20,000 bases of DNA from an uncultured virus (IMG/VR IMGVR_UViG_3300028832_000124) (Duplodnaviria; Heunggongvirae; Uroviricota; Caudoviricetes), in the IMG/VR virus record IMGVR_UViG_3300028832_000124; one strand, written 5' to 3'. Below are positions 2,855 through 16,817 of this stretch, in pieces. Under the pieces are notes generated by a model that saw only the letters and a program-made list of their open reading frames with translations, was not told the DNA's origin and did not search any database. Position numbers and translations under genes: made by a program. Within the stretch, counting starts at the first letter, position 1; each line of letters begins with the position of its first letter.

Positions 2855-2862
2855 TAACTTTG
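2855..2862 (+). promoter_or_regulatory. Bacteroidetes sigma-A -7 box (TAACTTTG) for the rightward transcript
   Basis: Matches TAnnTTTG about 85 bp upstream of ATG 2945. Confidence 0.6.
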
Positions 2863-2944: not shown

Positions 2945-3457
2945 ATGAAGAAAGACGAGATTAAGAACGTAGTCGAGAACACGGAGAGCGTAAAGAACGC
3001 AATCGAGAGCGGAAACGAGCTCACGCAGTCCGAAATCCTCAACGCCTACCTGGCAAATCATGCAGTCGAGCACTTTTGCGCTGCACTGAACGAGAACGAA
3101 GACGAAGTGAACGAAGTACTTGCAGCCTGCAAGAAGGAAGAAGGTATCTATTGGCTCTACACTCAGCCCGCAATCGACGGCAAGAAGGCCGACGGCACAC
3201 CACTGCCCACACGCGAAGAGTGGGAGCGCCTGAACACTGAGGCCGTGAGGGTTGACAATCTCGCAGGAAAGCAGTGGTACAAGCGCCCGTTCGTTATCGG
3301 TGACGCTCGCGGTGTCAAGTCAGTCGTTAACGCTTACGACCGCTATCAGTCCGCAATTGACGGAGCCGCCAAGAAGGTAGACAACACGCTCGCCGCTGCT
3401 GCTGCTATCTTAGGCGTTAGCGTTGAGGACTTGAAGGCAATGAAGGGCATCAAGTAA
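2945..3457 (+). CDS. Hypothetical protein, first rightward gene
   Basis: 170-aa ORF between a promoter box and a terminator; C-terminal 'AAAAILGVSVEDLK' helix pair. Confidence 0.8.
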   Translation: MKKDEIKNVVENTESVKNAIESGNELTQSEILNAYLANHAVEHFCAALNENEDEVNEVLAACKKEEGIYWLYTQPAIDGKKADGTPLPTREEWERLNTEAVRVDNLAGKQWYKRPFVIGDARGVKSVVNAYDRYQSAIDGAAKKVDNTLAAAAAILGVSVEDLKAMKGIK

Positions 3458-3478
3458 CGCAGAGCACACCACACCACG

Positions 3479-3517
3479 AAAGACGGGACCGGAAGAAATT
3501 CCGGCCCTATCTTTTTT
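3479..3517 (+). terminator. Rho-independent terminator
   Basis: GGGACCGGAA-gaaa-TTCCGGCCC stem followed by TATCTTTTTT, just after the stop at 3457. Confidence 0.75.
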
Positions 3518-3610
3518 CATGCCAAATCTTTCCGGTAATGCAGCCAGGGGATCTGATTCCCTGATGGTCACAAGCCCACAAATGCAGAGTGACGGAGAAA
3601 CGGGCGAGCC

Positions 3611-3671
3611 GAACGAACAGCCCGAACGAACGAAACGAACGAACGATTTATGAGAACGAACGAACAAACGA
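3611..3671 (+). repeat. Imperfect (GAAC)n tetranucleotide tract
   Basis: gaacgaacagcccgaacgaacgaaacgaacgaacgatttatgagaacgaacgaacaaacga. Confidence 0.8.
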
Positions 3672-3952
3672 TGCAGCCGAGCGATCTGGTTGTCATCAGC
3701 ACGGAAACGTTCAAGGACAGAAAGATTGAGGTTTTCCCCGATTTCTTTGTCTACGATTCCAGGACGAGAGCAGAACTCACCAATGCAGGCAGGATTTATC
3801 TCCGTGCATTATGTGATGACTACATGAACGAGAAAGTAACTGTTGAAGAATTGCTCTGCAATCTCGACACGATTTCCAAGGAATTTCCTTGTGACTCTGA
3901 TTTGGTTTATGACAAGATGTTTTTCGAGTTGACCAAAATGATGGAGAGTTAA
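3650..3952 (+). CDS. Hypothetical protein (true start may be ATG 3671)
   Basis: 100-aa ORF, co-oriented; 3-bp gap to the next ORF. Confidence 0.65.
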   Translation: MRTNEQTMQPSDLVVISTETFKDRKIEVFPDFFVYDSRTRAELTNAGRIYLRALCDDYMNEKVTVEELLCNLDTISKEFPCDSDLVYDKMFFELTKMMES

Positions 3953-3955
3953 ATC

Positions 3956-4318
3956 ATGTACGAACGAGAATATAAGGCGAGCGAGGTTGTCAGACAGCTT
4001 CGCCGCCATCAAGCAAAGCGCAATAATGACGAGCGCAGAGAATTGTGTGACGAGATAGAGAGTACGATTCCCTGTCAGCCCCGACTGATAGAGTTCAAGA
4101 GTACGATAACAGTACGAACGGAGCACGAATCAGAGACATTCCGCGCCAAGTATCTGCGAACGAGTACGCATTTCCCCGGAATAGTGCCAGAGCTGGTGAG
4201 CGAGGACGGGCAGGAGTACATGCTGATAACGTGGCTGACCTACGGAAGTCTGCTGAGATTACTCACGGAAGTACGACGAGGTGAACGGATAAAGAACTAC
4301 CGTTTCTTCGTATCATAA
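3956..4318 (+). CDS. Hypothetical protein
   Basis: 120-aa ORF; contains four AGTACGA copies in two reading frames. Confidence 0.6.
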   Translation: MYEREYKASEVVRQLRRHQAKRNNDERRELCDEIESTIPCQPRLIEFKSTITVRTEHESETFRAKYLRTSTHFPGIVPELVSEDGQEYMLITWLTYGSLLRLLTEVRRGERIKNYRFFVS

Positions 4319-4319
4319 C

Positions 4320-5090
4320 ACAGAGCAGTGAGCGAGTACGATTCTCGCTCATTAATGTGGCCATCCTTCGGGGTGAGAGTTGCAAGCCTCTAACACATAG
4401 CACGGGCAAGGGCCTGTATAAAGACATATCTGCGGAAACCTCCTGAGAACGGAGTACGACATGGATTCGTTGCACGATGAAATGTCGTGGGATATGACAC
4501 TGATGCAGGAAAATGCGGAGAGTTTAGAGCCGCTGCCTGAGCGAACAACGCGACACTCACGCAGTAGGGAGTTGAACCTGCTGAAATGGTCGAATAACGA
4601 GTAGGCCTGGAGCGATCAGATAAAAATCATATTCATTATTACGATTGATTCTCGCAGATGATTGCGAGTACGATATAGAGTTGGCTACCTATCTCGAGTA
4701 CGACTGTAGAAATGCAGTACGATTTATCAGAGGGTAATTCGTGGTGGTTCCCGTCGAAAGGTACGATAACACATTTAATCACTTTAGGATGAATCGGGCC
4801 GTGTGCTCATGGAGTACGATGACCCCACCGCCACAGACGAATTAGATGTTTGTCTGGACGGCAGGGAGAATCTTGCTGCAGAGTACGATGAACGGCTGCA
4901 ATGAAAGATATTACGAGGTGCGAGACCTCAGCATAAAGAATGGCCTGGCATATGACCAAATATGCCATTATCCCTCGGTTGGGGCAACGACGGCCTGCTT
5001 GTCAGGAAAGTCCCAGGTGAACGAAAGACGATAATGAACGAAGAGGGAGAGACTACGGGAGAGAGTGGAATTACCTCCGCTCTCTCTTAC
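4320..5090 (+). ncRNA. Candidate large structured ncRNA or structured leader
   Basis: No convincing ORF. At least 8 hairpins, with cUUCGg and GAAA loops and G-U pairs that work only on the + strand. Seven AGTACGA copies. Confidence 0.45.
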
Positions 5091-5114
5091 TATTTAACCA
5101 ATAAAAGTGCGATT

Positions 5115-5312
5115 ATGAAGAAATTCCTGCAAATCTCGAGAACTATCTTGAGTCTGAGTATTATTACTCTGATTAGTATTGCCATCTGTGCAGTTGTATC
5201 GCTGCTTGTCTTGTACGTTTTCGGCATCAACGATGACACTATCAGATGGTGTGCCAGCATCATGCTTTTTGGCACCATCCTCGTTGCTCTTCTTTTGGGA
5301 GCATTCGATTAA
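5115..5312 (+). CDS. Small membrane protein with two predicted TM helices
   Basis: MKKFLQISRTILSLSIITLISIAICAVVSLLVLYVFG...; start reassigned to ATG 5115 after the motif and A-rich leader. Confidence 0.65.
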   Translation: MKKFLQISRTILSLSIITLISIAICAVVSLLVLYVFGINDDTIRWCASIMLFGTILVALLLGAFD

Positions 5313-5375
5313 CAAAGTCTCACGGATATTTTCGGCAGAAATGTTGAAAATATCGCTCATGTTTCACCAAACAAG

Positions 5376-5663
5376 ATGAATGATATGGATAAGTTAAAGA
5401 AATTGCAGATGGTAGCCAAAGTTCTGAGAGAACACCACGGCTACAAAGGTAACAAGGAGTCAGACCATTCTAATCGGTTTAACTTCAAGTTTGACAAGAG
5501 CGAGGGCATTGCCAGTCCGTGTATCGACGTGTACAATGCAGAGAAAGGAGCAAACCTCTTCTTGTGGCCAGAAATCATAGAGTTGTGTCACGGCTTCGGG
5601 CTGTCGCACTACATACACTATGACAAATATGACCTCGAAGAGGTGGTGCTGCACATCTACTAA
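5376..5663 (+). CDS. Hypothetical protein
   Basis: 95-aa ORF bracketed by two hairpin motifs. Confidence 0.75.
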   Translation: MNDMDKLKKLQMVAKVLREHHGYKGNKESDHSNRFNFKFDKSEGIASPCIDVYNAEKGANLFLWPEIIELCHGFGLSHYIHYDKYDLEEVVLHIY

Positions 5664-5714
5664 GTCTCACGGCTCCATCAGGAGCCACTATTATTCACCA
5701 AATAACGAACGAGT

Positions 5715-5978
5715 ATGAAACAGAAAGTAATCAAAACGACTGCAATCTTCCGTTGCATCGTAACATTCAAGGATGGTGCACACAAAATCATCCGCATGAC
5801 CATTGACAAGGTAGCGCATTTCGTGTATCTTTTCAGACAGCAGGAGAGAAATATCTTCGTGGATGAAACATGTCTCTTCGAGATGTGCGAAAACGAATGG
5901 TTATGTATGTCATCAGTTGCCGGTGCCAAATTCATCAATGACCGCACCGACCAGGAATTTCTCAGTATCAGTCTTTAA
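5715..5978 (+). CDS. Hypothetical protein
   Basis: 87-aa ORF bracketed by hairpin motifs. Confidence 0.75.
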   Translation: MKQKVIKTTAIFRCIVTFKDGAHKIIRMTIDKVAHFVYLFRQQERNIFVDETCLFEMCENEWLCMSSVAGAKFINDRTDQEFLSISL

Positions 5979-6030
5979 AGGGTGGGTACATTTTGTACCC
6001 CTCCCACAACAAACCAATAATTATTGAACG

Positions 6031-6198
6031 ATGGTAGTAAACAAGATTCTCCGCAATAAGTGCGGTTTTTGGTATGTGGGCCGTCTTCTGACTGTTGATC
6101 CCGATGGTGTTCCCGTCTATCAGAAGTTGTCAGATGATTACGTCTACAAAGGATGGGCATTGAACTTTGCCCGTCGTATGTGTATCAAGCTATCGTAG
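6031..6198 (+). CDS. Small hypothetical protein, 55 aa (not in the ORF track)
   Basis: MVVNKILRNKCGFWYVGRLLTVDPDGVPVYQKLSDDYVYKGWALNFARRMCIKLS*; fills the gap between two motifs, and its TAG overlaps the GCCT motif. Confidence 0.65.
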   Translation: MVVNKILRNKCGFWYVGRLLTVDPDGVPVYQKLSDDYVYKGWALNFARRMCIKLS

Positions 6199-6271
6199 CC
6201 TTTTTGGCATGGGTGGGTTTTATTTCGTTCGTTCGCCTGCCTGTGCTGCTATTCACCAATACTATACGAAT

Positions 6272-6730
6272 ATGTTACCATCAGAATTTTATGACAGGAC
6301 GCATATCAAGCTCTCAGGAGATGAATATGCAGACGTAGAGAACATCTACAACAATGTGGAGATGCAAAAGGATGACTTCTGCCAGCATTGGGTTGAAGAA
6401 AAGGAAAATCCGTTGTTCAAGGAGTTAGCCAAAGCATTCTGCAAGCAGACGAAAGAGCTGCTGCAGGCTCAGAGTGACCTCGGCACCATCGAGCACAAAT
6501 ACAAGAGCGAGATTGAGGCCATCAAAAAGGAGAATGAGCGCATCCTTGCTGACAAGGAAGAGGCTCACAAATCTCTGGGTCGTAAGATTATTGAGAATAT
6601 CGACGACGAAGTACGATTGCACGATATTCTTGAGGAAGAGTTCACGATAGACTTTATCATCAAGGTCAAGCTGTATAATGACATGGAGCTTGAGCGAAGT
6701 GAGCGAGACTATCTAATCGGAAAGCTTTAG
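6272..6730 (+). CDS. Hypothetical protein with central coiled coil
   Basis: Start reassigned to ATG 6272 (MLPSEFYDRT...) downstream of the motif; in frame with track ORF 6167..6730. Confidence 0.75.
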   Translation: MLPSEFYDRTHIKLSGDEYADVENIYNNVEMQKDDFCQHWVEEKENPLFKELAKAFCKQTKELLQAQSDLGTIEHKYKSEIEAIKKENERILADKEEAHKSLGRKIIENIDDEVRLHDILEEEFTIDFIIKVKLYNDMELERSERDYLIGKL

Positions 6731-6778
6731 TCTTTAGGAGCCATGAACGGCTCCACTATTCACCAAAAATGTAAGAAT

Positions 6779-7015
6779 ATGGAAAAACTATTGAGAAATC
6801 AGCTTCATCTTGTCGGCTCTGCTGGCACGTTGGAGAATCTTTGTGAGTTCGCTAAGCAGCGTCTTTATTGGGCGCAGCTCGAAACCTCTGAGAGTACACG
6901 CTACGAGTCCCGTATGGGTAAGGTGTACGATGTGAGTAATCGTAACGGCCTCGTTCCTAACATGGTAATCATTCAGAGCAAGGTACGCTGTTCTCTCTAT
7001 CGGATAAAAGAGTGA
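6779..7015 (+). CDS. Hypothetical protein
   Basis: Start reassigned to ATG 6779 (MEKLLRNQ...), because the upstream ATG 6743 lies in the hairpin loop. Confidence 0.7.
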   Translation: MEKLLRNQLHLVGSAGTLENLCEFAKQRLYWAQLETSESTRYESRMGKVYDVSNRNGLVPNMVIIQSKVRCSLYRIKE

Positions 7016-7018
7016 GTC

Positions 7019-7195
7019 ATGAGCAAGTATCATCAGGAAAAGGATCGTGCGCGTCAGATAGCAAAGGACTGGCAGCAGGAAGAATCTCAAATCTCCCTGT
7101 CATGGGAAGGTGTGATGATTGCCGCTGCCTACCTGCAACGACTTGCGCGACGCTACGGACTCATTCGTGAGTTTCGTGAGAATGCCATCATCTAA
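7019..7195 (+). CDS. Small conserved-looking hypothetical protein, 58 aa (not in the ORF track)
   Basis: MSKYHQEKDRARQIAKDWQQEESQISLSWEGVMIAAAYLQRLARRYGLIREFRENAII*; the RYGL.REFREN ending resembles a recurring gut mobile-element protein. Confidence 0.7.
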   Translation: MSKYHQEKDRARQIAKDWQQEESQISLSWEGVMIAAAYLQRLARRYGLIREFRENAII

Positions 7196-7206
7196 ATGCT
7201 ACAGCT

Positions 7207-7365
7207 ATGCCAAAGGGTAAAGTAAGGTGGCTCACGTTCACTGACAATCCCCGTTGGGGCAGATATTTCATCGGTGAGAGTGAGTCCAGACAGGAAGCCA
7301 TCGACAAAGGTAAGGCAGCAAACAAAGGCAGATTCGTAGTTGAACGGAGAGTAAAGTTCAAGTAG
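7207..7365 (+). CDS. Small basic hypothetical protein, 52 aa (not in the ORF track)
   Basis: MPKGKVRWLTFTDNPRWGRYFIGESESRQEAIDKGKAANKGRFVVERRVKFK*; TAG overlaps the GTCT motif. Confidence 0.65.
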   Translation: MPKGKVRWLTFTDNPRWGRYFIGESESRQEAIDKGKAANKGRFVVERRVKFK

Positions 7366-7417
7366 TCTTTTGCGGCTCTTGCATGGGCCGCACAATTATT
7401 CACCAAATCTTAAGAGT

Positions 7418-7666
7418 ATGATAGAAGTAAAGAAGACCACCTATTTGGTGGACGGCATTCAAGAGCCTTGCTACGAGGTTTCTGACGGCTACGCTATGGT
7501 GCGAATTGCCAAGTGTTACCACATGGTAGGACGTGACACGCTCTATTTGACAGAGTATCTTGATGGAGAGTGGAACGGCTCAGACGAATGGGATGGAGAT
7601 TTCGATGCTCTGCACGATTTCGACGCGAAACGCCTGGCCAAACAATTCTCAGTTTATCTGAACTAA
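7418..7666 (+). CDS. Acidic hypothetical protein
   Basis: Start at ATG 7418 (MIEVKKTTYLVDG...); D/E-rich C-terminal half. Confidence 0.7.
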   Translation: MIEVKKTTYLVDGIQEPCYEVSDGYAMVRIAKCYHMVGRDTLYLTEYLDGEWNGSDEWDGDFDALHDFDAKRLAKQFSVYLN

Positions 7667-7679
7667 TCTCTGATGCGCT

Positions 7680-7850
7680 ATGGTAAAGTACAAAGGTTAT
7701 TCCATTTGGAACGAGCCAACGACGTTTGGCCGTCCTAACTGGCATGTTGGCACAGTCCAAAATGACGGGAAAATGTTGGTCCATGCCTCCGGCTATGGCA
7801 GTTGTCTGTCTGCTAAGCGTGCTGCTGATGCACATTTTGGCAGGCTGTAG
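7680..7850 (+). CDS. Small hypothetical protein, 56 aa (not in the ORF track)
   Basis: MVKYKGYSIWNEPTTFGRPNWHVGTVQNDGKMLVHASGYGSCLSAKRAADAHFGRL*; TAG overlaps the GTCT motif. Confidence 0.65.
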   Translation: MVKYKGYSIWNEPTTFGRPNWHVGTVQNDGKMLVHASGYGSCLSAKRAADAHFGRL

Positions 7851-7895
7851 TCTTTCGCTCCTTCGGGAGCACTATTCACCATATTTATTCAGCTT

Positions 7896-8249
7896 ATGAT
7901 TATCACAGACGAAACAAAGCAAAGATTCCTGCGGATGCTCAATGAGCGTCAGATTATTGTCATCCAATGTGACCACGGAAAGTCTCACAAGACCTACGAT
8001 TTCAAGTTCATTGGTGCCAATAGTGAAGGAAAGTGGGATTTCACTCCCATGATGGTAGAAATGAGCAGATACCCATCCAACAAGAGCACAAACGTAAAAT
8101 ACCTGTCAGTCCGTGCTCTGGATGCTGTGTCTGTCATCTGCGAGGTTATTGAGAAGATGAAGGAAGAGGGTATCTTGAACTTCGAGTACGCTTTCGGTTA
8201 CGAATTGTATCAGATAGTACGAGATAAAATCTGCACCTTCTATGTCTGA
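7896..8249 (+). CDS. Hypothetical protein
   Basis: 117-aa ORF bracketed by motifs. Confidence 0.75.
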   Translation: MIITDETKQRFLRMLNERQIIVIQCDHGKSHKTYDFKFIGANSEGKWDFTPMMVEMSRYPSNKSTNVKYLSVRALDAVSVICEVIEKMKEEGILNFEYAFGYELYQIVRDKICTFYV

Positions 8250-8295
8250 GTCTCTTGGGGCCGAACGGCCCACTATAAACCAAACGTTATGAATT

Positions 8296-8625
8296 ATGAA
8301 AGCATTGTGTATCTCAACTTGTCATCTGATTGCTAACGGACATGGCTCTATCTTTGAGCCAGTACGCGAAATCAGCGGTAAGAAGTTCTATTGCAAAGGA
8401 GATTTCTCCATTGCAAAATCTTGTGAGAGGGCTTATGTGGTTCTTTGGAAGAATGTGATTGTTGGGGAGTTTGTTGGAGCGAACAAAGAGCTTGTTGACT
8501 TACTACACTCCAAGACTGCACCGGACTCAAAGAAGGTCATGCAGAGTTACAACTACAGGACCGCATTGGCTGATATTGAGGAAGCTCAGAAATGGGCAGA
8601 ACGTTACAATTTCAAAATTTGCTAA
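8296..8625 (+). CDS. Hypothetical protein
   Basis: 109-aa ORF bracketed by motifs. Confidence 0.75.
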   Translation: MKALCISTCHLIANGHGSIFEPVREISGKKFYCKGDFSIAKSCERAYVVLWKNVIVGEFVGANKELVDLLHSKTAPDSKKVMQSYNYRTALADIEEAQKWAERYNFKIC

Positions 8626-8683
8626 ACGTCTCTTGTGTGGCTATAATGTAGCCACAGCTATTAACCCCTAAACTTATAGGAAT

Positions 8684-9019
8684 ATGGAAAATAATGCAGT
8701 AAAGAATGATGCTCTACGCATCCATGAAGTGACAGGCCGACCAATGGCTGAATGTGAAGAGCAGGCACAGCAGATTGCTGATTGTGTACGCGAAATGTGC
8801 AATCGAGTGGTTGAGTTCTTTTATCTCAAGAAGGATGGCACCACACGCCAAGCATTCGGTACGCTCCAGCAGGAAGTTGTGATTGCTCATGTGACAGCTG
8901 ACTCCATGAGAGAGCCAAAGCCTGACCTCGTAACGTATTTCGACACTGAGGCGCAGGCATGGCGTTCCTTCAAGAAAGTCAACTTCAAGAGCTTTGTAAA
9001 GATGGAGCCACAAGCATGA
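8684..9019 (+). CDS. WYL_2/DUF2693-like Sm/SH3 beta-barrel protein
   Basis: VVEFFYLKKDGTTRQAFGTL...LVTYFDTEAQAWRSFKKVN is the characteristic signature of this family. Confidence 0.75.
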   Translation: MENNAVKNDALRIHEVTGRPMAECEEQAQQIADCVREMCNRVVEFFYLKKDGTTRQAFGTLQQEVVIAHVTADSMREPKPDLVTYFDTEAQAWRSFKKVNFKSFVKMEPQA

Positions 9020-9153
9020 CGAATATCGCGAAATATGCTTGGTGTCTCTTCCTTGCAGCCCTGACGTTTGGCATCTGGACGTTCCCAATCCTAATCGTCT
9101 TGGTCCTCGTCAATCTCTATCTTATCAAAAAGCATCCCGAATGGTACAAATGA
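9016..9153 (+). CDS. Small hydrophobic membrane peptide, 45 aa
   Basis: MTNIAKYAWCLFLAALTFGIWTFPILIVLVLVNLYLIKKHPEWYK; ATGA overlap with the previous gene; followed by a motif. Confidence 0.6.
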   Translation: MTNIAKYAWCLFLAALTFGIWTFPILIVLVLVNLYLIKKHPEWYK

Positions 9154-9212
9154 AGTCTCAAGCCGTGCAAAGGACACGGCACCATTTATTAACCCCTAAA
9201 ATGTAGTGAATT

Positions 9213-10127
9213 ATGAAAAAAGAAAAGAACATTTGCGTAGAAGAAGTTGCCAAAGTTCCTGTTGTTAAGTACTACTTTTACAGGAAAGACACGAATGGCT
9301 ATCTGAAAACGGATGGTGGGCTTGTTTATGTGACTGTCTCTGCTATCAGCATTGACTTCAAGAAACAGCTCTTAGTAACGACGCTCACAGACAAGAGCGG
9401 CAAGGAGTATCTGAAAGAAGGTAAATTCTCTCTTTATGCAAGTCCAGAGGCGTACGAAGCTGACGATCCAATGAGAATGATTGTGTATCAGACGTGGGAA
9501 CTTCTTAAGTTTGCCGATTGGGGCCGACTGACTGATTGCGCTGTTGGTATTGTTGACGAGGAAGAAGGCAAGCAATCCTGTTATATCAAGGTATGGATAT
9601 TCGAGGATGGTGGTGCAAAAGAAATTCCCGTTGTCATCAACTCCATTGCCTGCGACACGTACGAGAAATGGCACTTGACCGACGGCAACATTCCTGTGAA
9701 GATGTGGGAAACCAGAGCTGACGCATACGCCTTCAACGAATATCAGATTACTGATAGTGACGGCGAGGTGTTCACTGAGGAAGGATTTCAGAAAAGACTT
9801 GGCCTGACCCCTGCACAATGGGTTATCCTCAAGCAGATGAAGGTACTCTTCGACAAAGCAACGGATGCAGGCATCAAGTTCATTTGGGACCGAGAGTATG
9901 CCGGAAACATCAAGGCTGTGAATCTTCTGAACGTCCACGACTACGGCTACGACCAACAGGCATTCCAAGGTGGTGACAACATTCAGTTCAAGCAGGTTGT
10001 TTTCGCTGACACTGGCATCAACTTCTACGATTACAACTCCGACGATGCTGACAGGGAAACGTTCGCCCTCAATCCAACAGCACGTCAGCAAAAGGAATGG
10101 CTCAAAGCCACTCAAGGTAACGAGTAG
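9213..10127 (+). CDS. Hypothetical protein
   Basis: 304-aa ORF bracketed by motifs; no family recognised. Confidence 0.8.
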   Translation: MKKEKNICVEEVAKVPVVKYYFYRKDTNGYLKTDGGLVYVTVSAISIDFKKQLLVTTLTDKSGKEYLKEGKFSLYASPEAYEADDPMRMIVYQTWELLKFADWGRLTDCAVGIVDEEEGKQSCYIKVWIFEDGGAKEIPVVINSIACDTYEKWHLTDGNIPVKMWETRADAYAFNEYQITDSDGEVFTEEGFQKRLGLTPAQWVILKQMKVLFDKATDAGIKFIWDREYAGNIKAVNLLNVHDYGYDQQAFQGGDNIQFKQVVFADTGINFYDYNSDDADRETFALNPTARQQKEWLKATQGNE

Positions 10128-10177
10128 TCTTTCTCCCTGCTTGCATGCAGGGAACAACAAACCAACTACACAAGATT

Positions 10178-10696
10178 ATGGCAAAGTTAAACGTCTATTC
10201 ATTTGCCGACTATAACTCTGTCCGTTTCCTCGCCCATCAAGTGAAGGATGGTAATGACAGTAGTATCAGTCGTGCAGCTCGTTACATGGCGCATCTTGTG
10301 TCGTGTATCGCTGACGAGCGATGTGTTATCATTCCTGTGCCTGGTCGTACAGGTGTCGCTCTCTACACAAAGGTTCTTGCCGAGCGTATCTCTGAGCTAA
10401 CGGGTGTACGTGTCGTGGACTGCCTAAAGTGCAAGCCACACATGACTCAGTATCTCCGCAAGATACGCTATGGACTTGACAGCATGCGTCCGATGGATTT
10501 CTCCATCACTCAGGACATTCCCTCAGACGTTATCCCTATTCTCATTGATAACGTTCTTGACACGGGAACTACTATTGTGTCAGCCATGCAGGCATTAAAC
10601 CGAACACTCTACGCTGTTGTGCTGGGCAATACGCACAACTTCCAGCATTTCAATTATCCTATCAACCTCTACGAACAGTCTCTTGCTCTCCAGTAA
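10178..10696 (+). CDS. Type I phosphoribosyltransferase-fold protein (ComF-like)
   Basis: IIPVPG and the PRPP-binding loop ILIDNVLDTGTTIVSA; start reassigned to ATG 10178. Confidence 0.75.
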   Translation: MAKLNVYSFADYNSVRFLAHQVKDGNDSSISRAARYMAHLVSCIADERCVIIPVPGRTGVALYTKVLAERISELTGVRVVDCLKCKPHMTQYLRKIRYGLDSMRPMDFSITQDIPSDVIPILIDNVLDTGTTIVSAMQALNRTLYAVVLGNTHNFQHFNYPINLYEQSLALQ

Positions 10697-10734
10697 TATG
10701 GAGAGTGCTATTAACCCATAAAATTATCAAGAAT

Positions 10735-11061
10735 ATGACAAAGATTACCTACAATGAGCAAGAACTTCGCCTTGTGCAGTCTCGCTATCAGAACAACAAT
10801 GCGCTCTACGTTGGACTCGTTGACAATGATGGAGAGTTTTATGCAGATGTGACGGTCAACATGCCCATCAGCAGCACTATGCCGACTGACTGCGCTTTCG
10901 TTGACACAAACAATCTCTCTTGGAAAATCATCGAAGTGTTGACGGATGCAGGTGTTGTGACACCTATCCATCAGACATGCAGAAGTGGTTTCTATCAGTA
11001 TCATGCTTTCCGCTTTCAGAATCTCTGGGATATTGATGACATCACAGCAGCGATCAACTAA
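10735..11061 (+). CDS. DUF4313-like protein
   Basis: YQNNNALYVGL...YADVTVN...AFVDTNN...SGFYQY pattern; start at ATG 10735. Confidence 0.65.
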   Translation: MTKITYNEQELRLVQSRYQNNNALYVGLVDNDGEFYADVTVNMPISSTMPTDCAFVDTNNLSWKIIEVLTDAGVVTPIHQTCRSGFYQYHAFRFQNLWDIDDITAAIN

Positions 11062-11263
11062 GTACGAAGCCGTCTGCGAGTCAGGGAATACGGATGCTGA
11101 CACCATCATGAAGTTTCCTGACCGTGAATCAGCAGAAATGTTCTGTCAGATTTGGCGTGCCTCGCATCCTGGCACCCATGCTTGGGTACGAGAGACACAG
11201 CACCGCCACATGGAGCACAACACGCTTGGCAGTTCCGTAATGACGGTAGACCTCTACGATTAG
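11036..11263 (+). CDS. Small hypothetical protein (start uncertain)
   Basis: In frame with track ORF 10985..11263; TAG overlaps a degenerate GCCT motif. Confidence 0.5.
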   Translation: MTSQQRSTKYEAVCESGNTDADTIMKFPDRESAEMFCQIWRASHPGTHAWVRETQHRHMEHNTLGSSVMTVDLYD

Positions 11264-11324
11264 CCTCAGTGTGCAGCGTGATTTTTGTCACGCTGTTCCC
11301 AATAACCCCTAAATACATCAGAAT

Positions 11325-11861
11325 ATGAATGAATACAAACCAATCTTCACCTGCTATGAAGAAATCAAGCAGCGTGAAATCAGAGAATTGAAGGATGCGG
11401 TACGAGCAGCGAGAGGGCAGTATGTCTTCCAAAAGGATAAGCATCCGTATGTGATGTGCAACCTCGACTCTGGCCCGTGTGACCTACGTGTTGACAGCGT
11501 AGAGATACAGAACATTTCAGATGTAGATGTACTGGTCATCTTTGGCTACGACGAGCAGGCAGGGCAGGCGGTTGAAATCTCTCTTGAGGATATTGCTTAC
11601 AGCCATATCTCGTTTATCACTGAGGCTATTCCTGTCCGCAAGTTCACACAATCTTCATTCTCTATCTCTCGCCTCAGCCGTGAGGACCTCGAAGAGAAAG
11701 GCTTCGACACGTCAGACGTGGATGACAAGACGATGGAAAAACTGGCTTCTAAGCTGGGTGATGACTATTGCGAACAGCTCTTTTGGGAATCTCTTGAAAT
11801 CATTGCCGAATCTATGGGTATTCCTCGCAAAGAGGACTACGAAGAGGATGATGACGAATAG
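11325..11861 (+). CDS. Acidic hypothetical protein
   Basis: 178 aa; C-terminal SREDLEEKGFD...LASKLGDDYCEQLFWESL segment and acidic tail. Confidence 0.8.
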   Translation: MNEYKPIFTCYEEIKQREIRELKDAVRAARGQYVFQKDKHPYVMCNLDSGPCDLRVDSVEIQNISDVDVLVIFGYDEQAGQAVEISLEDIAYSHISFITEAIPVRKFTQSSFSISRLSREDLEEKGFDTSDVDDKTMEKLASKLGDDYCEQLFWESLEIIAESMGIPRKEDYEEDDDE

Positions 11862-11863
11862 CT

Positions 11864-12073
11864 ATGTCCACCATCCGCTTGCAGCTCATTAAGGGCTTCT
11901 TCTATCCGACGGATGCAGACAGCCGTAAGATTCTCGAAGAGAGTGTGCGACTTGACCGCATCCCACTTGAACGAATAGACGTGGTATCTCCCAAACTTGT
12001 GAAAGCTGGTCATGCTCTGGCTATCACAGGCTGGGACCCACCGCCTGTTCCCGTGCGCTTTTCGTCTCTTTAG
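11864..12073 (+). CDS. Small hypothetical protein
   Basis: 69-aa ORF starting 2 bp after the previous stop and ending inside a motif. Confidence 0.6.
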   Translation: MSTIRLQLIKGFFYPTDADSRKILEESVRLDRIPLERIDVVSPKLVKAGHALAITGWDPPPVPVRFSSL

Positions 12074-12123
12074 CCGTAAGAAATTTACGGCACTACTTAA
12101 CCCCTTAAAAGAAAGGATTGAAT

Positions 12124-13035
12124 ATGAGTCAAAACAATGTTTATCAGATGGTAACTGACCGCATCGTGGCACAGCTGGAGCAGGGTCTTATCCCTTGGCA
12201 TAAGCCGTGGACGGGCGTAGGTATTGAAGATGGTGGAGCTGTCAACTATGTCAGCCGAAAACCCTACAGCATGCTGAATCAGATGCTTCTTGGACGCGAG
12301 GGAGAATATCTCACCTTCAAGCAGATCAAGGAGCGTGGAGGTAGTATCAAGAAGGGAGCAAAAGCTGGTGTCGTTGTATTCTTCACCACTACGACCTACA
12401 CCAAGCGCGAGGAAGTGCAGGAAGATGGCTCTACTGAGACTGTCAGTGTCATGAAAGAACACCTCATGCCTGTACTCAAGTACTACAACGTCTTTCACAT
12501 AGACGATTGTGAGGGTATCGAGAGTAAGATTAAGGTTGAAGAGGATGCTGGACCGAAGATTTCTACCATCGAGTCAGCCGAGAAGGTTCTGAACGGCTAC
12601 GTCGAACGAGAGAAAGAACTGCAGTTCCGCAACAATATACCGACTGACCGGGCCTACTATTCTCCGACGCTCGACCTTATCTCAGTTCCTATGCTCTCTC
12701 AGTACGAGATTGCGGAAGAGTATTACTCGACCACGTTCCACGAAGCGATTCACTCTACCATGCCAGAGAATCGTTGCAACCGCAAATCTGAGCAGAAACT
12801 TGCTGCCTTTGGTAGCGAGGATTATTCTCGCGAGGAACTTGTGGCCGAGATTGGCTCTGCCATGCTCTGCAACAATGTTGGCATCGACTGCGAGAAAGCT
12901 TTCAAGAACTCTGTAGCCTATATCCAGGGATGGCTTAAGAAGCTCAAGAACGACAACCGAATGATTGTCTGGGCTGCATCCCGTGCTGAGAAGGCTGCAA
13001 AGTACATTCTTGGTGAGCCAATCACTACTGAGTAG
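12124..13035 (+). CDS. ardC: ArdC-family antirestriction/ssDNA-binding protein with zincin-like metallopeptidase domain
   Basis: N-terminal VYQMVTDRIVAQLEQGLIPWHKPW; YYSTTFHEAIHST (HExxH) and YSREELVAEIGSA. Confidence 0.9.
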   Translation: MSQNNVYQMVTDRIVAQLEQGLIPWHKPWTGVGIEDGGAVNYVSRKPYSMLNQMLLGREGEYLTFKQIKERGGSIKKGAKAGVVVFFTTTTYTKREEVQEDGSTETVSVMKEHLMPVLKYYNVFHIDDCEGIESKIKVEEDAGPKISTIESAEKVLNGYVEREKELQFRNNIPTDRAYYSPTLDLISVPMLSQYEIAEEYYSTTFHEAIHSTMPENRCNRKSEQKLAAFGSEDYSREELVAEIGSAMLCNNVGIDCEKAFKNSVAYIQGWLKKLKNDNRMIVWAASRAEKAAKYILGEPITTE

Positions 13036-13091
13036 TCTATCTTTCCCAATGTGTAAGGCATTGGGAACTATAAACCAAACAATATCAGAAT

Positions 13092-13790
13092 ATGGAAAGA
13101 ACATTTTTACCCGTAAACTGTTGGGCAGCGGAAGATATTCCGTCCAACAAACTGATTGAGGGCAACCCTCAGAACATGAGTAATGCGGAATTGCTCTCTA
13201 TCATCATTGGCACTGGCTCCGATAAGGAGAATAGTGTAGAACTTGCACGTCGCATCCTTCTGACCTGTGACAACAAGCTTTCAGAACTGGCTAAGAAGTG
13301 CAACAATCCCAACAATCTCACCTACATGCGTGGCGTGGGCAAGCAGAAAACGGCTAAGATTATAGCAGCTCTCGAGCTTGGCAAGCGTCGCCAGCATGAG
13401 CAGGCCACCGAACGGCCCGAACTCAAAACGGCAGTACGAGTCTATAACATGATGGCTCCTATCATGCAGGATTTGGAAAAGGAAGAGTTTTGGGTGCTTC
13501 TCATGGGGCAGCACTTCAAGCTGATAAAGAAGTTCCGGCTGTCACAGGGTGGTATCTCTGAGGTGTCCGTGGATATTCGCATCATCATGAAGGAAGCGGT
13601 TCTGAATAACGCCACCGTCTTGGCTGTCTGTCATAACCATCCCTCTGGCTCACTGAGTCCGAGCAAATGTGATGACGATATAACGTTCAGCCTCAAGAAA
13701 GCCTGTGACGTTATGCGCATCTATCTCAGCGATCATGTCATCATAACTGATGGCGCATACTACAGCTATCGCGAGCAGGGAAGAATCTGA
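13092..13790 (+). CDS. radC: RadC-family JAB/MPN domain protein
   Basis: ELLSIIIGTG, HhH-like GVGKQK, EEFWVLL, JAB motif HNHPSG...S..D, DHVII. Confidence 0.9.
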   Translation: MERTFLPVNCWAAEDIPSNKLIEGNPQNMSNAELLSIIIGTGSDKENSVELARRILLTCDNKLSELAKKCNNPNNLTYMRGVGKQKTAKIIAALELGKRRQHEQATERPELKTAVRVYNMMAPIMQDLEKEEFWVLLMGQHFKLIKKFRLSQGGISEVSVDIRIIMKEAVLNNATVLAVCHNHPSGSLSPSKCDDDITFSLKKACDVMRIYLSDHVIITDGAYYSYREQGRI

Positions 13791-13810
13791 CCAACAAATG
13801 ACCAACAATT

Positions 13811-14026
13811 ATGTTATACACCGACGTTCAAGCTCAGGAACTCGTAGGGCAGGTTCTCGAATCTCTCAACGAGGATGGCCGTTATCCTCTCCATGAGGGA
13901 GATATGGGCTACTACAAGAATGCCAATGGAATCTGGACGGCTTGGGATAATTCTACAGGCGACTGCTGGGTAGAGGATTTCAAGACCCGAAAGGAGGCCA
14001 TTGAATGGTTAGGAAATGTTAATTAG
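13811..14026 (+). CDS. Small conserved phage-type hypothetical protein
   Basis: 71 aa; WTAWDNSTGDCWVEDFKTRKEAIEWL; TAG overlaps the last GTCT motif. Confidence 0.7.
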   Translation: MLYTDVQAQELVGQVLESLNEDGRYPLHEGDMGYYKNANGIWTAWDNSTGDCWVEDFKTRKEAIEWLGNVN

Positions 14027-14062
14027 TCTTTTTATCCTGCATGACATTTGCCGTGCAGGATG

Positions 14063-14190
14063 CAACTCACACAGCAACTCACACACTGATTCACACAGTA
14101 ATTCACACACTTAACGCATTGTGTATCAGATAGTTAATGTAAAACCTCACACACCAATTCACACAGCGATTCACACACCAACTCACACAA
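14063..14190 (+). repeat. Eight 12-bp direct repeats (core TCACACA) in two blocks of four
   Basis: CAACTCACACAG CAACTCACACAC TGATTCACACAG TAATTCACACAC, 32-bp spacer, AACCTCACACAC CAATTCACACAG CGATTCACACAC CAACTCACACAA. Confidence 0.9.
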
Positions 14191-14351
14191 TCGCGCGTGT
14201 GTATATAAAGGTACGTGCGCGTTTATAGTTATTATATAAATATATATATTCTACCAGTATATATATAACTGTGCAAAAATGGCTTTTTGTCTCTGATGTT
14301 AAAAATTCAGAAAACATCCTATATTATAAACCAAATTATTAATTTTGCAAT

Positions 14352-15299
14352 ATGAAAGAATTAAGAGGTCTCAGTTTAGACCAAAACAAGAAGTTCAAGT
14401 TCGCTATAGAATGCGGATATTTGGACGATTGGGAAACTGACCCACGAAAATGGAAACATACTTTCGTAGGTGCTTTCCTATGGAAATATCCCTCAAGGGT
14501 TAAAATCCTGAATATCCTCAAGGATATTATAGGTAACATACCTACGTGGGGTGACTTGAATGACGAGACATTACGCGACCTCGTAGATGAACTGATAGAG
14601 CAGGGCCTTGCCACGTCATCCATCAGAACGATGTGTGCAGAGCTGAAAGTGGTGCTCAATGAGAATGTGAAGAAAGTACCATGCGACAGCTTCCAGAAGA
14701 TATTGTCTGTGAAAGGGTCTGCAACAAAGCCAGTCTATCTGACGAGCAGCGAAATGGAACTCCTTCTTGCTTTCAAGCCTCGTACAGAGACAGAACACTA
14801 CGTACACCGTAACTTCTGCGTCTCTATGCTCACCGGAGCAAGGCTTGTAGACACATTGAAGCTAACCATCAGTAATTGTGACATTGAAACAAACATGCTG
14901 TCATACATTCCTCAGAAGACTCCTGGCATTGTCGTACACGTTCCCGTCGATGAACGGCACCACCTGCGAACGTTCCTTGCAGATATACCAAAGAACGACA
15001 GGTGCCTTGATACGTACAACGAGGTCATACGACGCATCTGTGAGCTTGTTGGCATTGACACGGTATGTAATGCCGTCAAGGCAGGAAAGGACGTGACAGC
15101 ACCAAAGTATCAGCTTGTCAGCTCGCATACAGCACGTCGCTCCTTTGCGACGAATCTCTATATAGCTGGCGTGTCGCTTGAGGACATATCCATGATGATG
15201 GGCCACGGCAAGAATATCGAGACAACAAAACGATATATCTGTGCAGAGCGTGCGCTGAATCCAAATGTCATGTCATACTTCCAGCAGCCAGCCGAATAG
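14352..15299 (+). CDS. Tyrosine recombinase lacking a recognisable arm-binding domain
   Basis: Catalytic set present: TGARLVD (R), SSHTARRSFATNLY (HxxR), MMGH, TTKRY (Y). Confidence 0.9.
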   Translation: MKELRGLSLDQNKKFKFAIECGYLDDWETDPRKWKHTFVGAFLWKYPSRVKILNILKDIIGNIPTWGDLNDETLRDLVDELIEQGLATSSIRTMCAELKVVLNENVKKVPCDSFQKILSVKGSATKPVYLTSSEMELLLAFKPRTETEHYVHRNFCVSMLTGARLVDTLKLTISNCDIETNMLSYIPQKTPGIVVHVPVDERHHLRTFLADIPKNDRCLDTYNEVIRRICELVGIDTVCNAVKAGKDVTAPKYQLVSSHTARRSFATNLYIAGVSLEDISMMMGHGKNIETTKRYICAERALNPNVMSYFQQPAE

Positions 15300-15346: not shown

Positions 15347-15358
15347 CCTATTTCGGTC

Positions 15359-16591
15359 TCAAGGCAGGGCTTTCCCTGCCACAAAATCAACCACTCTTCT
15401 CACAGCATTGTCTATCTTACGCTGGTCATGGGCGATATAACGTGCCGTAACGCGCTTACTCCAAGAATGCCCGAGACACTGGCCGATAGTCTGCTCACTG
15501 ATGTCAAGGTCGTTGGCAGCTATTGATCCGAACGAGTAGCGTGCTGAATAGAGTGTGATGTCAGGACAGAGTGGGGCATACTCCATCTTTCGGAGCTTGC
15601 CTACTTTGTCCTTCACCTTCCAGCTTGGACCAACCTTCTGCAGAGCTTCGTTGGCTTGCTTTGCGAACGAGTGATAGTCGCTCCTGCAGTCCATGAAACT
15701 TGTCAGCCATCCTTCACGCGAAGGGTAGCGGTCAATGATTTCCTGCGCCTTTGGCAATACTGGCAGGGTGATGACACGAATCTTTGTCACACCTTCCTTA
15801 TTCGTTTTCTTTCTGATAAACGAGAGGTGGCCATCCTTGATGCAGTCAGCCTTGAGCGATAGCAGGTCAACAGGATTGATGCCTGCAAGGTAGAACGAGA
15901 GGAAAAAGAAGTCAACGTATGGCCGTTGCCACGACTCACACGGATAATCTCTGAGCCGTCTCAGGTCCTCAGCTGAAAGATTGTTGGGAACTGTCTCTTC
16001 CTCTCTGATGTGATAGTCCAGGAAAGGATAGTTTGTGGTCATTCCCTTGCGTCTGGCCCAATTAAACACGGCACGGATATTCCTCAGTTCCTTTGCCACG
16101 CCATTTATCTTCATGCCCTGTCTGATACAATGGTCATAGAACGAGTCCAGCCAGTCTTTTTCGATTGAAAAATCAGCGTTTCGATCGAACGATTCCACCT
16201 TTCGGGCTGTTATCCGATAGAGTACAGCCGTTTGTTCCCTTTTTGTGGCGGCGAACGATTGGATAGCATCTGACAGGGCGAACGGCTTGGCCTTCTTCTG
16301 AATGCCGAAAACCTCATTTAGAATGCGCTCCTTGAGTTCTTGGTTGCTCAGCCCTGCAATATCTCGTTCGAGACATAACGAGGTCACAGAGGCGAAATAT
16401 TTGCCCAATAGGATAGTCTTACGTTTCCAATCCCTATCAGACTTTGGAAACGACATTTCAACCAGCTTCTCACATGTGGTGATGCCAGTATTCACAAAAA
16501 ACCTGCCCTGCTTCGTACTGATGATGAAGTACACAGGGAAAGAGCCATCTTTGTTCGCTCTTGTTGTGTTTACATAAGGATAAATCTTCAT
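15359..16591 (-). CDS. int: Bacteroidetes-type site-specific integrase (arm-binding, SAM-like and catalytic domains)
   Basis: N-terminal RANKDGSFPVYF...TGI arm domain; LRNIRAVFNWA; GINPVDL, YSAR, LGH...VTARY; adjacent to the tRNA. Confidence 0.9.
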   Translation of the reverse strand: MKIYPYVNTTRANKDGSFPVYFIISTKQGRFFVNTGITTCEKLVEMSFPKSDRDWKRKTILLGKYFASVTSLCLERDIAGLSNQELKERILNEVFGIQKKAKPFALSDAIQSFAATKREQTAVLYRITARKVESFDRNADFSIEKDWLDSFYDHCIRQGMKINGVAKELRNIRAVFNWARRKGMTTNYPFLDYHIREEETVPNNLSAEDLRRLRDYPCESWQRPYVDFFFLSFYLAGINPVDLLSLKADCIKDGHLSFIRKKTNKEGVTKIRVITLPVLPKAQEIIDRYPSREGWLTSFMDCRSDYHSFAKQANEALQKVGPSWKVKDKVGKLRKMEYAPLCPDITLYSARYSFGSIAANDLDISEQTIGQCLGHSWSKRVTARYIAHDQRKIDNAVRRVVDFVAGKALP

Positions 16592-16593
16592 AC

Positions 16594-16745
16594 TATTCTG
16601 AGTTTAATTGGTTTGCTACACTATTTGCTGCACCAAATTAACCCTCAAAAGCCTGCAAAAGCCGCGATTTCTCTTAATCGTTTGGAGATTTACCTCAACT
16701 CAGAATAATTATCAAAAAGCCTAATTTGCTGATTATCAGCATTGA
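16594..16745. other. Putative att junction: arm-type repeats and palindrome next to the tRNA 3' end
   Basis: Direct repeats TTTGCTACAC (16612) and TTTGCTGCAC (16624); inverted repeat TATTCTGAGTT (16594) / AACTCAGAATA (16697); palindrome TGCTGAT-T-ATCAGCA (16727-16741). Confidence 0.6.
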
Positions 16746-16817
16746 GCGGAATACGGGACTCGAACCCGCGACCCTCGGCTTGGGAAGCCAATGCTCTACC
16801 AACTGAGCTAATTCCGC
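16745..16817 (-). tRNA. tRNA-Gly (anticodon CCC)
   Basis: GCGGAAT acceptor stem, D arm GCTC-AGTTGGTA-GAGC, anticodon loop TTCCCAA, T loop TTCGAGT; CCA not encoded. Confidence 0.97.

Follow-up and report, generated by a model that had tools for sequence, protein, structure and literature searches.

The PeSL of T4-type phages is the closest analogue of the element described here, a hairpin flanked by conserved words that recurs at the gene junctions of a small-gene array in an uncultured virus of the Caudoviricetes (IMG/VR record IMGVR_UViG_3300028832_000124); the whole stretch analysed, 20,000 nucleotides long, is called the window below. According to PMC4122927, PeSL and PmSL also consist of a stem-loop with variable stem and a conserved motif, placed before the small orphan open reading frames (ORFs) of a hyperplastic region. 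It is at these motifs that close relatives differ by insertions, deletions and replacements; in the PeSL, a promoter of the host sigma-70 type forms the conserved part, and the stem-loop resembles a terminator. The element of the window differs in that it holds no host-type promoter, its conserved part being a translation leader and two words, and in that the stop codon belongs to the motif and the array looks like one operon. Its copies lie at gene junctions, are under selection for structure, share one strand, precede a leader of shared consensus, lack promoter and terminator signals and contain the breakpoints of homology between relatives. Our tentative preference is to read it as a portable intercistronic RNA module of one long phage mRNA.

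Other described systems have single traits in common with it. The early RNase III sites of T7 are likewise hairpins between the genes of a long early phage transcript, without a U-tract; a T7-type RNase III substrate is a long irregular duplex of ~20 bp, about two helical turns. Lambda nut (boxA + boxB) is present as one or two sites per early operon, near the promoter, and is read by an N-like protein, while mycobacteriophage stoperators, with which the single orientation and junction position of the element would be compatible, are contiguous, highly conserved, asymmetric intergenic repressor sites that silence prophage genes. An integron attC is an imperfect palindrome with conserved ends and a variable centre behind a promoterless cassette, with one strand favoured, and an intrinsic terminator also has a G+C-rich hairpin. 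Twister ribozymes (RF03160, RF02684) occupy junctions of the very operon studied here; the review PMC6765202, in its part on these ribozymes, proposes for them a suggested, unproven role in the processing of polycistronic and phage transcripts, and recounts that other self-cleaving classes were found through nearness to twister and hammerhead. The hairpin element, in contrast, matches no ribozyme model and is without a multi-helix core.

Copies of the element in the window and in related loci

Seventeen copies, all on the + strand, lie within 5051-14065, and one further copy stands at 15356 (Table 1). Fourteen of the 17 carry GTCT; three variants lack it, the last two of them lying behind TAGCCT. 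Among the 23 ORFs called from 5117 to 14026, 15 of the 22 internal junctions hold a copy, as do the entry and the end of the array; at the remaining seven, the ORFs overlap or are 2-46 nt apart. A strict descriptor (GTCT; a spacer of 2-7 nt; at least 5 bp of perfect stem; 3-9 nt of loop; TCACC or AACC within the next 12 nt) matched 14 times on the + strand of the window and never on the - strand, one match (6861) being a false one inside a gene. Shuffling of dinucleotides (200 times) gave a mean of 0.33 matches (maximum 2) in the array region, against 13 observed, and a mean of 1.9 over both strands of the whole window, so that the sequence-only reading, which had placed about 17 copies at the gene junctions of 5051..14065, was borne out. 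The copies outside the strict descriptor are 5971 (imperfect stem), 14026 (no leader behind it) and the three GTCT-less variants. The minimum-energy fold contains the hairpin in 14 of 14 junction RNAs, with z-scores of -0.8 to -3.7.

Together, 18 related loci hold 129-131 distinct copies, every one on the array strand. The CAAAGGA-loop hairpin, identical in all relatives, was used as probe and retrieved 3 viral and 15 metagenome stretches; a motif pattern search yielded one independent array (locus L263), and the initial collection pattern, with 15 fixed bases, was too loose, nearly all of its 120 matches being due to chance, and gained locus L092. When the search was anchored on the 3' motif alone (17 loci), 116 copies were found on the array strand versus 6 on the opposite strand; GTCT stands 2-6 nt before the stem in 104 of these 116, and several of the remaining 12 show TAGCCT there, or a pyrimidine word like it. 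The element is common only to close relatives, and ArdC relatives at ≤69% identity carry other junction hairpins.

Comparison of 5000-12900 with annotated phage and plasmid collections by blastn gave no match, a 304-aa protein had no relative in the genome-contig collection, and no description of the motif was found in full-text literature, subscription journals lying outside its coverage. As had been supposed, the element belongs to no Rfam family: Rfam 15 gave no match on the copies at E ≤1, save one chance-level Histone3 stem-loop at 5666-5711. This match to the model of the eukaryotic histone 3' UTR stem-loop scores 22 bits (gathering score 34) and touches one of the 17 copies; the two have in common a 6-bp hairpin with an AC-rich tail behind it, at the 3' end of an mRNA. 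An identity with the histone stem-loop was rejected on its chance-level score and single copy.

The junction has a regular anatomy, defined by those 111 of the 129 distinct copies that are flanked by the stop of one ORF and the ATG of the next. This stop is within 5 nt of GTCT in 93 of them and is the TAG of TAGTCT itself in 74; for comparison, TAG ends 11 of the 61 phage ORFs that lie outside the array and 42 of the 221 ORFs of host loci. GTCT is followed by 2-6 mostly pyrimidine bases, then by stem and loop. Stem length ranges from 5 to 13 bp (6-8 bp in 82 copies, 5-9 bp in 100, 10-13 bp in 11), and the recurrent loops are TTGCAT (19 copies), CAAAGGA (11), GAAC (8) and TTCG (7). The bases after the stem are R (106), C (107), T (66, with A in 25), A (92), T (73) and T (77), giving the consensus RCTATTMA, in which T is the commonest base only at positions 2, 4 and 5 of the first 8, and the ATG begins 22-28 nt after the stem in 84 copies. 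The TTGCAT loop is found on at least 15 different stems. The CAAAGGA hairpin (window 9162-9180) is identical in 15 metagenome stretches, and in relatives it stands, letter for letter, behind at least 8 different upstream genes; since this loop, which sits on GCCGTG/CACGGC, is kept in L263 (13573) on the fully different complementary stem GCGGAG/CTCCGC, the loop itself seems to be selected.

The stem is conserved as a structure of the sense strand

We aligned 32 copies near-gaplessly to analyse covariation. All seven of the seven stem pairs change on both sides, and 97.6% of the cells pair, in copies partly chosen for perfect stems; the covariation score of 0.647 was reached by none of 500 shuffles, which gave 0.186, and sliding the partners gave no more than 0.176. 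Comparison of 15 related hairpin pairs taken from different phages shows four compensatory double changes, such as TCCCTGC/GCAGGGA versus TCCCCAC/GTGGGGA, and five single changes kept by wobble. A covariance model built from the 32 copies retrieves nine window copies at E ≤0.0015, four of them outside the training set, and nothing on the - strand. The proposal of a dedicated, structure-conserved signal is thus supported by stem covariation in the array-strand copies, and the swapped arms that had been noticed between the stems at 5664 and 6730 are real.

Because G-T cells (56) exceed A-C cells (25), both being allowed, and because cTTCGg loops are present among the copies, it is the sense strand that folds, most simply as mRNA. 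This is the form that had been favoured from the sequence alone. One structural detail of that earlier proposal was not confirmed, a helix of the flanking GT with AC that would close a one-sided bulge: the closing helix UAGU/ACUA shows no covariation in the 32-copy alignment, only A-to-G changes that keep wobble, and it is present in 1 of 14 minimum-energy folds.

A Bacteroidetes-type leader stands before the start codon

Anchored on the ATG, 109 leaders have ACC at -17 to -15, A at -14, -13 and -12 in 64, 91 and 83%, respectively, A at -6 in 64%, G at -4 in 61%, A at -3 in 85% and U at -1 in 94%. Their G content is 0-6% from -23 to -10, and they are mostly unpaired in minimum-energy folds. 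In measurements of initiation in Flavobacterium johnsoniae (Baez et al. 2019, PMC6847099), A at -12/-13, -3 and -6 are the positive determinants. Since these positions match, the A-rich 3' part of the element is, by its sequence, probably a strong Bacteroidetes leader without Shine-Dalgarno site, and the suggestion that the element has to do with translation holds for this part. The likeness to the Bacteroidetes initiation region, as far as it is set out in that part of PMC6847099, covers A at -14 to -11 (chiefly -12/-13), -3 and -6 and the low degree of structure; the consensus found here is far stricter than the genome average and adds the ACC, the G at -4 and the U at -1.

Other roles for the region between stop and start did not stand up. 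For a duplex between the 5' word or bulge and the sequence that precedes the ATG, the mean energy is -2.31 kcal/mol, the same as with permuted partners, and reversed controls give -2.4 to -2.5. Readthrough of the stop that would fuse neighbouring ORFs is contradicted by the stop-to-ATG frames (36/35/40), and a guide RNA pairing with both words by the lack of a conserved AATAGY..AGACTA in the window, in the related IMG/VR record G001 and in loci L263 and L238.

The array reads as one operon

A run of short ORFs occupies the + strand of the window from 2945 to 14026. The array reads as a single operon of ~11 kb, because TAnnTTTG boxes are absent from its junctions (0 of 17), a canonical terminator stands behind it and no sigma or RNA polymerase family was found among the G001 proteins (56+59). 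On the + strand, TAnnTTTG boxes occur at 2197-2855 and 14340, plus 8349 and 9506, both of which are inside genes. The last of the upstream boxes is the likely promoter of the entire + strand operon. It belongs to 1870-2945, a long AT-rich control region between divergent operons that has five such boxes; three TWAACACTATT words of this region (2328, 2650, 2711) share ACTATT with the junction elements.

The elements themselves are not intrinsic terminators, as had been concluded from the sequence, the U-tract being generally missing after the stem. The claim that no stem is followed by a U-tract holds, apart from the flagging of 2 of the 17 copies, with hairpins at 5671 and 9162, by a loose terminator scan (5 T in 8). 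The terminator at 14192, by comparison, has a T-run.

Homology between relatives breaks in the element

Arrays that keep the element differ in gene content. Nine pairs have the same upstream gene and hairpin followed by different downstream genes, and in these identity ends 2, 3, 5, 6 or 12 nt past the stem; 14 pairs have the same downstream gene behind different upstream genes, and there identity begins in the 5' word, after the stem or after AACCAA. Where the window has its copy at 10127, the G001 record carries an additional gene, inserted immediately behind AAACCAA. The idea of a cassette junction is upheld by these breaks, and the element is also a site of gene exchange between related phages. 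Since the breakpoints fall in any conserved block and the phage has RecT and an exonuclease, they fit homologous recombination between the junction sequences that the phages have in common, and do not fit a single site-specific crossover.

A proposed portable module between cistrons

In the intercistronic module that we tentatively prefer, the 3'-end half would comprise UAGUCU with the stop codon inside it, a short spacer of pyrimidines and a stable hairpin of selected shape and free sequence, and the 5'-end half would comprise the RCUAUU word and a G-free leader loading Bacteroidetes ribosomes without a Shine-Dalgarno site. The hairpin, 22-28 nt ahead of the ATG, would lock up the bases that immediately precede the ribosome footprint, so that each small gene could initiate independently of the upstream gene; it may also stabilise the upstream cistron as a barrier against 3' exonucleases. 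Because each cassette carries the same three conserved blocks, related phages can recombine and trade genes at the joints. Such a module would be a naturally occurring case of plug-and-play operon design, in a phylum that dispenses with Shine-Dalgarno sites, with a standard stop-hairpin unit and a leader for each cassette. The near-consensus Bacteroidetes leader is a candidate expression part, and the element marks the points at which rumen Prevotella phages exchange genes, ArdC- and RadC-like anti-defence cargo included.

Several points weigh against this module. Insulation and stabilisation leave the strict conservation of TAGTCT and RC.A unexplained, and likewise the loops that recur on many stems, which hint at a specific reader. 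Twisters at the first junctions of the operon suggest that the phage does cut this transcript. The search of host genomes did not turn up the motif, which makes a host factor evolved for host targets unlikely: a pattern search of 401 Prevotellaceae genomes gave 7 single matches versus 15 for the reversed control pattern, and none of 151 genomes had a match to the covariance model, with which only part of the candidates were scored. The partial choice of copies for perfect stems inflates the pairing percentages, and the RNA evidence, considered next, consists of assembled contigs.

Possible active processing of the transcript

Active processing of the hairpin element is a serious possibility, if on balance an unlikely one. 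A phage or host endoribonuclease would read UAGUCU/RCUAUU at the hairpin base, or the element would cleave itself, and together with the twisters this would cut the ~11-kb transcript into hairpin-capped single-gene mRNAs. This explanation stays alive because twisters sit at the first junctions of the same operon. A Twister-P1-like match is found at the first junction here and in three relatives (L237 3937-4000, L238 and L240 3325-3390), where it scores 50-54 bits, below the gathering score; Twister-P5 is found on the array strand of two relatives (L252 and L238), in the portion of the operon where the window has its weak second match, at 43-44.5 bits, above the gathering score of 37.6. Matches on the - strand of relatives lie at 13308-13371 and 12665-12733 in L238 and at 9244-9307 in L252. 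What the ribozyme part of PMC6765202 says on classes near twister and hammerhead and on transcript processing speaks for such a role, as does the arrangement of conserved words around a stem of free sequence, which is that of a structure-plus-word nuclease site.

Much of the operon is represented among the contigs of one RNA library from sheep rumen. One of these contigs ends at 3533, the start of the twister match, across which a probable DNA contig runs, and this is a weak hint of cutting; on the other side, the elements at 8628, 10678 and 12064 are bridged by contigs of this library, in which DNA carry-over is possible. Because DNA contigs also break at elements, owing to cassette variation, contig ends and uncovered bins are uninformative on processing or expression level. 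Further evidence runs against cleavage of the element. No known ribozyme model matches the copies at E ≤1, and a single hairpin with ~12 fixed bases is small for a ribozyme. Compared with the T7 sites, the stems, 5-13 bp and mostly 6-8 bp, are shorter than an RNase III substrate, the 5-9 bp of 100 of the 111 copies being too short, and no duplex of ~20 bp is present among these 111 (maximum 13 bp); cleavage of our element is hypothetical. Host tRNA genes encode no CCA, which leaves RCUA unsupported as a cue for RNase P; mimicry of a tRNA acceptor (G1-C72, RCNA) was rejected on the same ground and because position 75 is U in 66 of 111 copies.

We consider it rather improbable that the element and the twisters form one system of mRNA punctuation, in which the element would serve as a dedicated cleavage signal, either as a minimal self-cleaving motif of a new kind or as the target of a so far undescribed nuclease. 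If true, the 11-kb early transcript would be converted into hairpin-capped monocistronic mRNAs, each with a standard leader. Bacterial twister ribozymes are in any case placed here at a defined operon position beside a second junction signal, which makes their phage role testable.

Possible protein-binding, promoter and recombination sites

That a phage factor binds the words or loops, at an RNA site like nut or a translational operator, or at a DNA site like a stoperator, we regard as quite unlikely. The words are phage-specific, being absent from the host genomes searched; the sites at gene junctions have one orientation in common; CAAAGGA and TTGCAT loops are conserved on covarying stems; and ACTATT is shared with the three words of the control region. 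The pyrimidine word GTCTCTTTA may resemble boxA. However, no candidate reader emerged: no sigma, N-like or RNA-binding family was found among the 56+59 G001 proteins, N-like proteins being hard to detect, and the two conserved operon-head proteins (2945-3457 and 3650-3952) gave no Pfam, PHROG, NCBIfam or Atlas match, nor did their models, of good quality (pLDDT 83 and 81), give a PDB fold match at E ≤0.001. Seventeen copies over the 9 kb of one operon are unlike nut sites, and the words, between which a variable hairpin and a spacer of no fixed length intervene, are unlike a rigid DNA site. The WYL_2 protein was rejected as reader: its gene is present in 13 of 14 loci that were found via the neighbouring CAAAGGA hairpin, an ascertainment effect, and is absent from the independently found array L263.

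PyrR is an RNA-binding attenuation protein, and the phosphoribosyltransferase-like protein of 10169-10696 (+), which only some arrays carry, has a faint similarity to it (E 6e-4, far below cut-off).

Very unlikely is a terminator-promoter cassette of the PeSL type, whose hairpin would end the transcript and whose RCTATT...ACC part would be a promoter used with a phage factor, each gene being its own unit. The layout is the same as in the PeSL sections of PMC4122927, a stem-loop and then a motif before small ORFs, with insertions and deletions at the motifs, and many phage proteins are without annotation. The absence of TAnnTTTG from all 17 junctions, of a sigma or RNA polymerase family and of a U-tract after the stem argues against it, as do the RNA-library contigs that run through three elements and the ACC-AAA block, which keeps its place relative to the ATG, as expected of a translation signal. 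A sigma-70, sigma-54 or Bacteroidetes promoter was rejected, the spacing varying with stem length and no boxes being present.

An attC-like site, in which the folded + strand hairpin would be the substrate of the 315-aa tyrosine recombinase in a phage-borne integron-like system, is highly improbable: promoterless cassettes, all pointing the same way and each closed by an imperfect palindrome whose flanks are conserved and whose centre is free, are gained and lost between relatives and are followed by the small recombinase gene, but this recombinase scores 31.8 bits with the integron-integrase model TIGR02249 (cut-off 265) and is not an integron integrase, no IntI is present, the flanks are TAGTCT and RCTATT instead of R''/L''-L'/R' boxes with an RYYYAAC/GTTRRRY core, the element is much smaller than attC, the breakpoints spread over three blocks, also 5' of the hairpin, with no single crossover point, and the fixed ATG distance and built-in stop point to expression, not recombination.

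Table 1. Positions of the junction elements and other features in the window. The GTCT column gives the first base of that word.
Feature	Position	Strand	GTCT	Details
Junction element, GTCT-less variant	5057..5116	+		hairpin 5057-5088, ACTATTTAACC, leader, ATG 5117
Junction element	5310..5375	+	5317	TAA 5310-5312, hairpin 5325-5354, leader, ATG 5376
Junction element	5661..5714	+	5664	TAA, hairpin 5671-5686, ACTATTATTCACC leader, ATG 5715
Junction element	5971..6030	+	5971	TAA 5976-5978, imperfect hairpin 5980-6005, ACAACAAACC leader, ATG 6031
Junction element, TAGCCT variant	6196..6271	+		long hairpin ~6206-6247, GCTATTCACC leader, ATG 6272
Junction element	6728..6778	+	6730	TAGTCT, hairpin 6737-6754, ACTATTCACC leader, ATG 6779; covariance model 49.8 bits
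Junction element	7363..7417	+	7365	TAGTCT, hairpin 7371-7392 (TTGCAT loop), leader, ATG 7418
Junction element	7848..7895	+	7850	TAGTCT, hairpin 7857-7870 (cTTCGg loop), leader, ATG 7896
Junction element	8247..8295	+	8250	TGA, hairpin 8258-8271, ACTATAAACC leader, ATG 8296
Junction element	8623..8683	+	8628	TAA, hairpin 8636-8656, GCTATTAACCCC leader, ATG 8684
Junction element	9151..9212	+	9155	CAAAGGA-loop hairpin 9162-9180, ATG 9213
Junction element	10125..10168	+	10127	TAGTCT, hairpin 10134-10153 (TTGCAT loop), ACAACAAACCAA leader, ATG 10169
Junction element	10678..10734	+	10678	hairpin 10684-10707 with stop TAA in loop, leader, ATG 10735
Junction element, TAGCCT variant	11261..11324	+		hairpin ~11273-11296, AATAACCCC leader, ATG 11325
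Junction element	12064..12123	+	12064	TAG 12071-12073, hairpin 12073-12091, ACTACTTAACCCC leader, ATG 12124 (ArdC-like gene)
Junction element	13033..13091	+	13035	TAGTCT, hairpin 13043-13067, CTATAAACC leader, ATG 13092 (RadC-like gene)
Terminal copy after last array gene	14024..14062	+	14026	TAGTCT, hairpin 14033-14062; without RCTATT word, leader or following gene
Extra copy between convergent recombinase genes	15356..15380	+	15356	hairpin 15363-15380, ACAAAATCAACC; kept in relatives
Host-type -7 promoter box	2855..2862	+		TAACTTTG; last of five TAnnTTTG boxes in control region 1870-2945
Twister-P1-like ribozyme	3532..3595	+		between ORFs 2945-3457 and 3650-3952; 53.4 bits (gathering score 67.2), E 1e-10
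Weak second twister-like match	4349..4406	+		after ORF 3956-4318; 23.3 bits, E 0.048
Hairpin + T-run terminator behind array	14192..14222	+		canonical; terminator scan
Small tyrosine recombinase gene	14352..15299	+		315 aa; follows array
Other tyrosine recombinase gene	15359..16591	-		convergent; at prophage end

Setting of the array and further features

Because the G001 record has the gene content of such a phage and its match ends inside a tRNA-Gly gene, the window is the prophage of a rumen Prevotella siphophage integrated in that gene. G001, a 75.6-kb free-form phage record of IMG/VR, matches the window at 91-98% up to 16786, where homology stops inside the tRNA-Gly(CCC) gene 16744-16817 (-), the likely attachment site. 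UvrA, encoded beyond the integrated element, has ≤83% identity to rumen Prevotella metagenome-assembled genomes and 80% to Xylanibacter ruminicola; with the gene content, this shows that the initial guess of a Bacteroidales phage or integrative element was right, the phage being a Prevotella siphophage. Among the products of G001 are a tape measure protein, a major head protein, a large terminase, a portal, a primase, a CI-like repressor, Ant, RecT, an exonuclease, a helicase, SSB, NinB and a methyltransferase. Its copies of the element are clustered on one strand at 48094-58949, with one more at 68996 between the exonuclease and helicase genes.

The array cargo includes an ArdC-like protein (12124-13035; ArdcN and zincin peptidase), a RadC-like JAB protein (13092-13790) and, among genes 8684-9019 and 10735-11061, WYL_2 and DUF4313 proteins, the remainder being mostly orphans; it fits an anti-defence or host-takeover early region.

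Repeated words were also seen on both sides of the array. GTACGA, mostly as GAGTACGA, occurs 13 times within 930 nt (3958-4883, +) versus 7 times on the whole - strand; inside the putative ORF 3956-4318 the word is found in more than one reading frame, and it also accompanies small hairpins at 4336 and 4668. The stretch 14040-14200, which separates the last array gene from the gene of the 315-aa recombinase, contains about eight copies of (A/T)TCACACA, up to the terminator-like hairpin 14192-14222; they could be iterons, or sites of a recombinase or repressor.

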